A DNA stretch of 64,000 nucleotides from Escherichia phage EC.P1: the sequence record PQ657772.1; one strand, 5' to 3'. Below, one piece after another: positions 61,897 to 63,548 of this stretch; the first letter of the stretch is position 1, and each line of letters starts with the position of its first letter. The notes beneath the pieces were generated by a model that ran no database searches, was not told where the DNA came from, and saw only the letters and a program-made list of their open reading frames with translations. The translations under genes were made by a program, and so were the position numbers.

Positions 61897-62205
61897 CTAT
61901 AGCAAGTCGTTTTCCATATCGTCAAGAACAGAATCGACGATGTTCGCTGCTATCTTCTTAGGCATCTTGAACCACTCGGTGTTAGGTTGCCTTACTGCGT
62001 TCATTTGTTTTAGTCTTTTGTGAATTTCTTTCTCTGCTAAACGTGCATCTTCAAAGTGTACTTCATGGTATACCACAAAATCTCTAAAAGGTGTAGCAGT
62101 TTGATATGTCCTTAAACGTTCTGTCATTTCAGATTTACTGGTAAATCCTATCTTAACATAATCAGGCCACGCATCATTTACTATAACATAACATATCTGT
62201 GACAT
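61897..62205 (-). CDS. T5orf172 / GIY-YIG-like domain protein
   Basis: CYVIVND...VKIGFTS...RLRTYQT matches GYVYIL.N...KIG.T...R.. pattern; start set to ATG with GGAGA SD. Confidence 0.4.
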   Translation of the reverse strand: MSQICYVIVNDAWPDYVKIGFTSKSEMTERLRTYQTATPFRDFVVYHEVHFEDARLAEKEIHKRLKQMNAVRQPNTEWFKMPKKIAANIVDSVLDDMENDLL

Positions 62206-62244
62206 AGAAAATATCTCCATCAGTAATATGAAGATATTTATTAA

Positions 62245-62604
62245 TCAAGTAATTCGGAAATTTACCCCAGCATCAATTAGGCGTTGGAATGGGTTTTGTG
62301 GCTCGAATTCAGAAGGAGTTTTTGAAATGTTCAGTACTGGAGCATCAGCATGTAACTTTGACATACGTTCTTTGTACTTATCTAAGTATTCTTCATATAA
62401 CATATCTTCAGTGTTACTATCAAGTATGTCTTCAATAAATGAATCAATACTATAGTCCAGTCTATCATCATTATAATACAAAGTTTCACTAGCTTCATCA
62501 TAACCAACTAAAGTCCCGTATGGAACGTTAATCTCAATTTTTGAGTACTGACTCTTTAAGTACTCTTCTTTCTTAAAAATGTATACAGTTAACATCCGTG
62601 TCAA
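62245..62604 (-). CDS. hypothetical protein (119 aa)
   Basis: ORF. Confidence 0.45.
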   Translation of the reverse strand: MTRMLTVYIFKKEEYLKSQYSKIEINVPYGTLVGYDEASETLYYNDDRLDYSIDSFIEDILDSNTEDMLYEEYLDKYKERMSKLHADAPVLNISKTPSEFEPQNPFQRLIDAGVNFRIT

Positions 62605-62618
62605 CTCCTTATGGTTGT

Positions 62619-63548
62619 TTACTTAAAAGTATTTACGATTTCCAAAACACTTTCAAGATACTTAGCATCAAAAGTTTCAGTAAATCCTGATGGTAACTCT
62701 TCAGTACTTACTACACCACTATCAATGTATTGTTTCAAAAACTTTTCCAGTACTAATGGTTTATGCCCATCTTCAAAGAAACGCTGAACTAGTACAGTGT
62801 GTTCAAAATCAGAATCACGACTTTGTTCATGAATTCGCCTCTTCATATCACCAGTAATTCCGTACTTGTAAACTGTTTTCTTTTTATTTGTCAATTTTTG
62901 AATGTAAAAATATCCAGGTTTTGATGGCTGGTATCCATATTCTCCACAAGATGGACACCCACGACCGTTGACATGTGCCTTTGGAATTTGAGTAAATTTA
63001 CCATGTTCTGGACAAACGATAATAATCTTTGTATCACTATTTTTATATTCAACTAAGTCATAGCAATATTTGTCACCATGTACTGCTATAGCTTTTTTAA
63101 TAAACAATTCAGTGGTTATACCAAAACGATTAGCACATACACCACAATCACAATTTTTATTCAACAATGTTGCTGGGTTAACTTCGATATAATCTTGATG
63201 TTCATTACAGAAAAGAATCACTTTAGTTTTTTGATTTACATAAACGGTTTTTTCATAAGAATATTTGTTACCATATTTTTCTTGACATTTTTTAATAAAT
63301 TCGTCAGTTTGATGTGGGACGTTTTTATGACATATATTACAACCTTTAGCAGTTTTTCTAACAATTTGCATAGGGGTAATTAAAAAATATTGATTACAAT
63401 CAGTACAATAAAGTTCGACTTGCTTATGGGCGTTAACATATACCATCTTTTCAAATGTATATTTCCCCATTCCATATTTTTCGTTAACATCGTTTATAAA
63501 TTTTTGTTCATGCTTGTTCATAATCCTACCTTGTGGGTTAATTTTCAT
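62619..63548 (-). CDS. three tandem Cys/His zinc-ribbon-like modules plus C-terminal T5orf172/GIY-YIG-like domain (possible homing endonuclease or DNA-binding protein)
   Basis: Three ~50-aa repeats (KYG.KY.YEK.VYVN...V.L.C..H......P......C..C); C-terminal GYFYIQKL..KTVYKYGITGDMKRRIHEQ. Confidence 0.45.
   Translation of the reverse strand: MKINPQGRIMNKHEQKFINDVNEKYGMGKYTFEKMVYVNAHKQVELYCTDCNQYFLITPMQIVRKTAKGCNICHKNVPHQTDEFIKKCQEKYGNKYSYEKTVYVNQKTKVILFCNEHQDYIEVNPATLLNKNCDCGVCANRFGITTELFIKKAIAVHGDKYCYDLVEYKNSDTKIIIVCPEHGKFTQIPKAHVNGRGCPSCGEYGYQPSKPGYFYIQKLTNKKKTVYKYGITGDMKRRIHEQSRDSDFEHTVLVQRFFEDGHKPLVLEKFLKQYIDSGVVSTEELPSGFTETFDAKYLESVLEIVNTFK

Follow-up and report, generated by a model that had tools for sequence, protein, structure and literature searches.

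A probable free-standing T5orf172 homing endonuclease gene beside the major capsid gene of Escherichia phage EC.P1, and a separate T5orf172 core gene downstream

In the 64,000-nucleotide stretch of Escherichia phage EC.P1 DNA analysed here (record PQ657772.1, hereafter the window), the large gene that follows the major capsid gene is, in our judgement, probably a free-standing, selfish homing endonuclease gene of the T5orf172 type that spreads by homing with co-conversion of its flank, while the small T5orf172 gene two genes away is a separate core gene. The source genome is an Asteriusvirus, that is, a 121Q/PBECO4-like jumbo coliphage. The original prediction had placed these two genes in open reading frames (ORFs) at 61897..62205 and 62619..63548, and both are indeed found there, on the minus strand. 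It had also treated them as an adjacent pair, a description that does not hold, as a 116-amino acid ORF lies between them and one gene is mobile and polymorphic whereas the other is fixed. The large gene occupies a variable slot, defined as the space between the terminator of the capsid gene and the ATG of the 116-amino acid ORF. The features on which the discussion draws are the following.

62619..63521, minus strand: predicted free-standing T5orf172-type homing endonuclease gene, 300 amino acids from M10 (ORF list, PHROG 681, homologues, AlphaFold2 model, slot polymorphism)
63324..63503, minus strand: predicted zinc module 1, residues 7-66, ligands C39, C42, C61, C64 (repeat z-scores, conservation)
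63132..63308, minus strand: predicted zinc module 2, residues 72-130, ligands C105, H108, C126, C129 (conservation)
62943..63116, minus strand: predicted zinc module 3, residues 136-193, ligands C170, H173, C189, C192 (conservation, sub-threshold DUF723/CapR matches)
62622..62924, minus strand: predicted C-terminal nuclease domain of T5orf172/GIY-YIG fold, residues 200-300
63630..64000, minus strand: 3' part of the major capsid protein gene (gp23-like), which continues beyond the window (Pfam Gp23, E 1.8e-20; named major capsid or head protein in relatives)
63630..63783, minus strand: capsid 3' end with an all-synonymous recoded patch that travels with the nuclease gene (comparison with 12 relatives)
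63588..63607, minus strand: hairpin of the intrinsic terminator that follows the capsid gene, bordering the slot on the left (terminator scan)
63559..63567, minus strand: TGGTATAAT, putative extended -10-like element upstream of the large nuclease gene (read from the sequence)
62245..62595, minus strand: acidic 116-amino acid ORF, isoelectric point 4.4, between the two T5orf172 genes, its ATG being the right border of the slot (PHROG 15724)
61897..62205, minus strand: stand-alone 102-amino acid T5orf172 protein (MSQIC...), conserved core gene (Pfam; PHROG 15085, E 2.8e-56)

The best nucleotide matches to the 2.5 kb around the locus are fEgEco12 (98.4% identity), CMSTMSU (98.0%) and TH47 (96.2%), spanning only 59-60% of the query, and the first two, at these same flank identities, are without the large gene. 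The gene is thus present or absent at one precise site between near-identical genomes. Compared with the nuclease-less fEgEco12, the window shows 0 mismatches over 61300..62595 and again over 63800..64000, whereas 63579..63783 contains about 20 mismatches as well as several indels, the divergent tract reaching about 200 nucleotides into the capsid gene. In Logan contig L013, whose Asteriusvirus background is a different one, the nuclease gene is 98% identical; from position ~63830 to ~62650 this contig differs from the window at about 10 of about 1180 nucleotides (~99% identical), while its flanks differ at 18 of 160 nucleotides upstream (11%) and about 45 of 300 downstream (~15%). Based on the tract boundaries in these two comparisons, the moving unit is about 1.2 kb long, and comprises the nuclease gene, the terminator before it and the last ~170 nucleotides of the capsid gene.

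The capsid end within this unit is recoded without any change to the protein. Over the last 150 nucleotides of the capsid gene the window differs from each of 12 relatives at 18-30 nucleotides and at 0 amino acids, and over the 219 nucleotides preceding the patch only 1 nucleotide differs from close relatives. Among the changes are TCN serine codons replaced by AGY codons or the reverse, in the stretch that encodes DSTSSLGN, and the same patch is found in L013, hence in another background. The best isolate-genome match to the region 63575..63790 is 87.7% identical, and an exact 29-mer from the patch gave 0 matches in the IMG/VR and JGI metagenomes; a find-relatives search of IMG/VR with a single protein returned no related loci. 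Throughout the genus the capsid 3' end is a hot spot of synonymous substitution. In a comparison of 11 relatives, from which EC.P1 was left out, nucleotide diversity stays at 0.00-0.07 per site in the first 900 nucleotides of the gene and peaks at 0.12-0.155 in three of the five last 60-nucleotide windows (positions 901-1176), where a single amino acid position varies. A cassette that is ~99% identical across backgrounds whose flanks differ by 11-15%, and that brings with it a synonymously altered capsid end, is the pattern that homing with co-conversion produces; lateral spread accompanied by flanking markers is, in fact, what we found for the large gene.

The slot itself is highly polymorphic. 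It is empty in about 8 relatives overall, as read directly in fEgEco12, CMSTMSU and PBECO4 and as judged by match span in four Salmonella SD phages, and it otherwise holds at least five types of zinc-module/T5orf172 alleles, window type included.

Window type: 3 modules
WPEC5/Ecwhy_1/slurp01 type: 3 modules
121Q/BF17/Turkey3 type: 4 modules, 365-368 amino acids
TH47/SHEFM2K type: 332 amino acids, nuclease domain 36% identical
Turkey5 type: 406 amino acids

The insertion junctions are precise, one lying after the T-run of the terminator and the other at the ATG of the next gene. The terminator is kept in all relatives and the sequences part ways immediately after its T-run; the right junction, ...TAAACAA(C/T)C...AAGGAGTTGACACGG-ATG, is common to the three occupied alleles that were aligned (window, WPEC5 and 121Q), and the empty sites carry a different spacer of 40 nucleotides. 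Five metagenomic relatives, with nuclease genes 58-63% identical to that of the window, have the same slot occupied, in the order capsid gene, nuclease gene, small ORF, 101-103-amino acid T5orf172 gene and tail fibre gene. Presence or absence across related phages, which the original prediction had proposed to examine, thus separates the two genes, since the large one is polymorphic and the small one is found in every listed relative. In Mimasvirus the slot is empty in CBB, and in Cronobacter phage GAP32 (L015, 1875..2108) it holds a 77-amino acid ORF annotated as similar to the C-terminus of a hypothetical protein of phage JSE, which may be a remnant of a former occupant.

Within the occupied slot, the two halves of the protein have evolved differently. 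The nuclease domain is 82-92% identical at the amino acid level among three allele types, with a nonsynonymous rate (dN) of 0.044, a synonymous rate (dS) of 0.479 and a dN/dS ratio of ~0.09. As for the modules, module 1 is 74% identical to module 1 of WPEC5 and module 3 is 51-56% identical to those of other slot alleles (56% for the WPEC5 type), and module 2 is just 30-42% identical to any module of other slot alleles (30% for the WPEC5 type). By these comparisons the window allele is a new mosaic. Database labels for the gene also vary, the 121Q orthologue being called an endonuclease and that of Turkey3 a DUF4379 domain-containing protein.

The open frame of the large gene (62619..63548) encodes 309 amino acids from an in-frame upstream ATG at 63548. 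The start, however, is likely to be M10 at 63521, giving 300 amino acids, because AAGGTAGG precedes it and because this is the annotated start in WPEC5, Ecwhy_1 and slurp01; residue numbers used here follow the 300-amino acid form. Three tandem Cys/His modules of about 50 amino acids had been proposed, and the repeats are real, with local alignment scores of 110 for modules 1 and 2 (z 15.6), 107 for modules 2 and 3 (z 17.9) and 45 for modules 1 and 3 (z 4.9) against 1000 shuffles, even though the period is ~65 amino acids rather than 50. Each module shows the ligand pattern C-x2-(C/H)...C-x2-C, with the two ligand pairs ~20-26 residues apart, as is typical of CapR/DUF723/DUF4379 modules, and all 12 Cys/His ligand positions are present. 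There are 13 cysteines in residues 1-193 and zero in the C-terminal domain. In an alignment of the window protein with 32 homologues (33 sequences, mostly three-module, 26-98% identity), nine cysteines are invariant (C39, C61, C64, C105, C126, C129, C170, C189 and C192) and H173 is kept in at least 90% of the sequences. Conservation of the module cysteines, named beforehand as a check on the prediction, is therefore evident, and the motif quoted with that prediction, GYFYIQKL..YKYGITGDMKRRIHEQ, is present. The invariant residues of the C-terminal domain in the same alignment are Y206, G221, E259, G279 and E282, and the two arginines of MKRRIHE are both kept in three closely related slot allele types, with one arginine in two divergent types. 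In the AlphaFold2 model (predicted local distance difference test score, pLDDT, 87.9; predicted template modelling score, pTM, 0.40), confident per domain and not in their arrangement, each module is formed by a helix, two beta-hairpins and a short helix, and the C-terminal domain shows a GIY-YIG alpha/beta fold, for which GIY-YIG nucleases are the best match. The low pTM is to be expected from a beads-on-a-string architecture.

Family assignment of the large protein relies on its homologues, on PHROG 681 ("endonuclease", E 1e-69) and on the predicted fold, since its own Pfam matches fall below threshold: 14.9 bits for T5orf172 (PF10544; cut-off 20, E 0.039), E 0.044 for MUG113, and, for the zinc-module profiles, 16.2 bits for DUF723 (cut-off 20.9), 16.1 for CapR (24.2) and 13.6 for DUF4379 (24.5), the best of these falling in module 3 (DUF723 E 0.01, CapR E 0.013). 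There is a further match between its N-terminal repeats and those of PHROG 559. Among 5.8 billion proteins searched, 138 homologues were found; of the 120 listed, nearly all have DUF723 among their precomputed Pfam domains, many have DUF4379 too, and fewer have CapR or T5orf172/MUG113. Scanned individually, 29 of the 33 aligned sequences match DUF4379 (best E 2.7e-12), 14 match DUF723 (2.8e-13), 14 CapR (1.5e-7), 14 MUG113 and 12 T5orf172 (best 1.3e-9). The GIY-YIG-clan similarity that had been anticipated is accordingly found in both proteins, directly in the small one and through homologues in the large one. No isolate genome encodes a protein more than 67% identical to the latter by tblastn. 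Searches of NCBIfam with three proteins of the locus, of PADLOC with the large protein, and of Pfam for GIY-YIG (PF01541) with both T5orf172 proteins at E up to 1 gave no match, and Foldseek against the Protein Data Bank (PDB) gave nothing significant, the weak top matches being trypanosomal mitoribosomal DUF4379 proteins. Taken together, homologues and model place the large protein in the T5orf172 branch of the GIY-YIG superfamily, as a predicted DNA-targeting relative of homing endonucleases, much as first proposed. A tblastn search within the window, with the three proteins and three relatives as queries, found no paralogues; in the WPEC5 and 121Q genomes the large protein has a second match elsewhere, which implies at least one more paralogue there, beyond the region covered by the window.

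If the gene spreads by homing, the three ~65-amino acid CapR/DUF723/DUF4379-type zinc modules, forming an N-terminal beads-on-a-string array, would recognise DNA, and the 100-amino acid C-terminal domain of GIY-YIG fold would cut it. During a mixed infection, the enzyme would cut the homologous region of a co-infecting phage not carrying the same allele, at or close to the boundary of the capsid gene with the gene that follows it, and possibly inside the last ~150 nucleotides of the capsid gene. Repair templated by the nuclease-bearing genome would then give the recipient a copy of the gene, along with the terminator and the capsid 3' end next to it.

Several points weigh against this proposal. 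The capsid 3' haplotype of WPEC5-type phages is also that of fEgEco12, whose slot is empty, so that the capsid end is not a discriminating target for every allele, and the haplotype of TH47/SHEFM2K-type phages is close to that of the empty PBECO4. This sharing rules out a one-to-one pairing of nuclease allele with capsid haplotype, and for these two allele types the target has to be somewhere else, perhaps spanning the insertion site itself. In addition, the window patch resembles the haplotype of the more distant relatives Turkey5, CBB and GAP32; recombination with a divergent donor would therefore suffice to explain it, and the patch is no proof of selection for resistance to cleavage. The tract and slot data fit homing by double-strand break repair with co-conversion, and do not locate the cut; furthermore, slot class was read directly in only 12 loci, most relatives being assigned from match spans. 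With regard to the protein, zinc binding, DNA binding and cleavage are predicted from family precedent, as is activity in the Asteriusvirus homologues, and the conserved Tyr, Arg and Glu are candidate catalytic positions by analogy with the GIY-YIG motif. On its own the large protein stays under the Pfam gathering threshold for every relevant family, a PDB sequence search at E up to 10 gave no match, and alignment by hhalign of the C-terminal domain profile with the I-TevI catalytic domain, global and local, was uninformative.

Other explanations for the large gene should also be considered. We regard it as distinctly unlikely that the protein is a domesticated DNA-binding regulator repressing or tuning transcription in the capsid region, its nuclease domain being idle or secondary. 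Such a role would have precedents, as CapR, which has the same kind of zinc module, binds the promoter of the ICP1 capsid operon (PMC8096241), and I-TevI, which autorepresses, is both repressor and nuclease (discussed in PMC10448857); the gene, moreover, lies directly after the capsid terminator and beside the -10-like element. The T5orf172 domain, however, is present in every slot allele and is the most conserved part of the protein (82-92% identity, dN/dS ~0.09, invariant motif residues), and about 8 relatives do without the gene, which is thus dispensable and moves between backgrounds, a pattern more in keeping with a selfish element than with the regulation of an essential operon. The possibility that the protein is a weapon against a satellite, a plasmid or a host locus, its polymorphism resulting from an arms race and not from homing, seems to us less probable still. 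Odn of ICP1 is, in fact, a T5orf172 nuclease that has been redirected to a satellite (PMC8263062), E. coli satellites interacting with T5orf172 proteins have been proposed by Barth et al. (PMC10448857), and the fast turnover of the DNA-binding modules would fit changing targets; yet Odn-type proteins rely on a satellite-derived RepA_N domain rather than on arrays of zinc modules (PMC8263062), and the large gene keeps one slot across genera and travels with the flank of the capsid gene, as repair-mediated homing at a cognate locus would have it do.

The view to which we give the least credence, and which we consider highly improbable, is that the T5orf172 domains are non-catalytic DNA binders and that the slot reflects a flux of accessory genes through illegitimate recombination. 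T5orf172 was first described through its association with Bro-N/KilA-N and was predicted to bind DNA (summarised in PMC8096241), and activity of both window proteins is only predicted. Against this view, the predicted fold is matched best by GIY-YIG nucleases and the Tyr, Gly, Arg and Glu motifs are conserved, a T5orf172 protein has been shown to cut DNA by means of a catalytic Glu (PMC8263062), and the identical, precise junctions in the window, WPEC5 and 121Q, together with homologous genes in the same slot of the five metagenomic relatives, argue against random insertion. An extension of the homing proposal, which we think unlikely, is that the slot is an allelic series, in which arrays of 3-5 modules on a near-constant nuclease domain are each linked to their own synonymous haplotype of the capsid 3' end. 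If this were true, the series would show how the specificity of the nuclease and the recoding of its target had evolved against each other in an arms race. If, in addition, the ~65-amino acid modules each read a few base pairs independently, the series could yield a code relating modules to DNA, and with it a compact, programmable nuclease scaffold of the GIY-YIG type.

The architecture of the large protein is a familiar one among T5orf172 homing endonucleases, and the order of its domains, which had been called unusual, is reversed only with respect to I-TevI and the T4 Seg proteins. Barth, Dunham and Seed (2023, PMC10448857) reported that 87% of 229 T5orf172 homing endonucleases have CapR/DUF723/DUF4379-type zinc fingers N-terminal to the nuclease, that these domains are often in tandem and shuffle, that the genes mark boundaries of genetic exchange, and that capsid genes are found in 31% of their neighbourhoods. 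Netter et al. (2021, PMC8096241) reported homology between CapR, a repressor encoded by the PLE satellite, and the domains at the N-terminus of ICP1 proteins whose last domain is T5orf172, and found the four conserved cysteines of CapR to be needed for DNA binding, using Cys-to-Ser mutants in electrophoretic mobility shift assays. The T5orf172 homing endonuclease genes of Vibrio phage ICP1 (Gp174, Gp165, Gp121, Gp53, Gp130 and tcgB) and of related phages, covered by the 2023 survey, share with the large gene the N-terminal zinc modules and the C-terminal T5orf172 domain, a free-standing position beside essential genes including capsid, domain shuffling and exchange boundaries; they differ in belonging to another phage lineage and in their low sequence identity (27-28% over 89% of the query for tcgB, by tblastn). 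Closer at hand, 121Q gp604 and the WPEC5, Ecwhy_1 and slurp01 genes have the same slot, the identical right junction and a nuclease domain at 82-92% identity, the 121Q, BF17 and Turkey3 alleles differing from that of the window in having four modules instead of three.

Odn (Gp88) is the sole T5orf172 protein whose nuclease activity has been demonstrated: it cleaves DNA in vitro, and its E180A mutant is inactive (Barth et al. 2021, PMC8263062). It resembles the large protein in its C-terminal T5orf172 domain with conserved Arg and Glu and in an N-terminal DNA-binding domain that sets specificity, but that domain is of the RepA_N type, its target is the replication origin of a satellite, and it is a defence tool for which homing is not known (PMC8263062). 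CapR (Pfam PF21817) shares the Cys4 kind of zinc module and a tie to the capsid operon (PMC8096241), and unlike the large protein is a satellite-encoded repressor with no nuclease domain; the window modules reach E 0.013 against its profile. In I-TevI and the Seg proteins the catalytic domain is N-terminal, and is followed by NUMOD/helix-turn-helix modules with one zinc finger in the linker. Given this reversed order and the lack of a PF01541 match, we do not file either T5orf172 protein with the classical I-TevI/Seg family, even though the fold is shared and the chemistry probably is as well. The family, the architecture and the habit of neighbouring capsid genes have all been published, and little at this locus is new in kind. 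The 121Q-like phages, however, are not mentioned in the T5orf172 survey (PMC10448857), the slot is not discussed in the CBB and fEgEco12 genome papers, and we found no earlier description of the jumbo-phage slot and cassette in the literature. What the locus adds is a clear natural case in jumbo coliphages, with a cassette whose limits are resolved to tens of bases, a purely synonymous recoding of the capsid gene and a slot with many alleles, which together make the target and specificity of a T5orf172 homing enzyme directly testable.

The small gene presents a very different picture, and the contrast between it and the mobile gene nearby should help annotation. Its reading as a minimal T5orf172-like protein is borne out by Pfam (T5orf172, 50.6 bits against a cut-off of 20, E 3e-13, profile positions 2-99 of 101; MUG113, 48.8 bits against 22.3). 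The family's motif set (a Tyr in strand 1, KIG(F/Y)T, an Arg in helix 1, a Glu in the lEk..H helix and EW(F/Y)) is complete, as CYVI, VKIGFT, ERLRTY, AEKEIH and TEWF, with no other domain, and is kept from Asteriusvirus to the Mimasvirus phages CBB and GAP32. The start used here is that annotated in relatives, as an upstream ATG at 62220 would give 107 amino acids. All listed records of Asteriusvirus, Mimasvirus, Serratia BF and Yersinia fHe-Yen9, as well as those of Salmonella Munch and Pectobacterium CBB, have the gene in one copy per genome, at 67-100% amino acid identity. Its position is fixed in CBB and GAP32, after an acidic ORF of 116-139 amino acids and before the tail fibre gene, and is the same in the five metagenomic relatives. 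It is single-copy, syntenic across genera and, with a dN/dS of 0.03-0.05 (dS near saturation), under strong purifying selection; Rak2-like jumbo phages therefore inherit it vertically as part of their core, and it is no homing element. Labels of the kind "homing endonuclease", as in vB_Ec-M-J, are thus probably wrong for it.

What the small protein does is most likely a nuclease function for the phage other than homing, as predicted from its family. It consists of the nuclease domain alone, as do UPF0213/EF2693, T4 endonuclease II (DenA) and the T5 ORF065-like ORFs, and T5-like phages encode relatives at 36-43% identity; the small T5orf172 ORFs of T5-like phages, however, lie dispersed between tRNA genes and frequently bear the label of homing endonuclease, whereas the 102-amino acid gene is fixed in a syntenic core. 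With low confidence, we suggest that it might be a non-specific or structure-specific nuclease, in analogy with small GIY-YIG enzymes such as T4 endonuclease II and SLX1. The acidic 116-amino acid protein that is conserved alongside it may be its partner, and, as a weaker suggestion, the two could form a two-component nuclease of all Rak2-like jumbo phages in which the acidic protein is a specificity or inhibitor subunit. The 116-amino acid ORF has 13 homologues, confined to the same phage group and none with a Pfam domain, and is syntenic between the nuclease slot and the 102-amino acid gene in CBB (gp258), GAP32 (GAP32_252) and the metagenomic relatives; its AlphaFold2 model (pLDDT 53) is too poor for a fold search. 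The PADLOC matches of the small protein (PDC-S57, 1.3e-15; PD-Lambda-1, 7e-4) reflect domain-level similarity to candidate defence proteins that contain T5orf172, and are no sign of a defence system in a lytic phage.

With regard to the wider locus, the window is AT-rich (GC 33-39%), nearly every gene is on the minus strand, and the genomes of Asteriusvirus relatives measure 348-386 kb. Gene order on that strand is major capsid gene, terminator hairpin, 300/309-amino acid gene, 116-amino acid ORF and 102-amino acid gene, followed by tail fibre, tail-fibre assembly protein, one small ORF and DNA polymerase. The ORF list contains an 89-amino acid Gp23 fragment (63630..63899), and a split capsid gene or intron was considered; since the frame is open upstream to the window end, the capsid gene merely runs off the window. 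The -10-like element TGGTATAAT was not called by a consensus promoter scan requiring both hexamers, and sigma-70-like sites numbered 9 against 10.6 in shuffled sequence, hence no excess. Neither tRNA genes nor Rfam families at gathering threshold were found in the 64-kb window. A few plus-strand ORFs (199, 229 and 226 amino acids; 52277..53581 and 21090..21770) break the minus-strand array, and neither these nor three neighbouring minus-strand ORFs match Pfam. Between the polymerase and the tail-fibre assembly gene lies a 101-amino acid ORF (59301..59606, minus strand) that matches PHROG 12534 and, more weakly, PHROG 639 ("transcriptional regulator", E 1.6e-7). The polymerase, family-B-like and of 1001 amino acids, is encoded near the tail-fibre and assembly genes (56213..61855, minus strand), a few kb from the capsid gene, and this proximity of polymerase, tail fibre and capsid genes is also kept in CBB.

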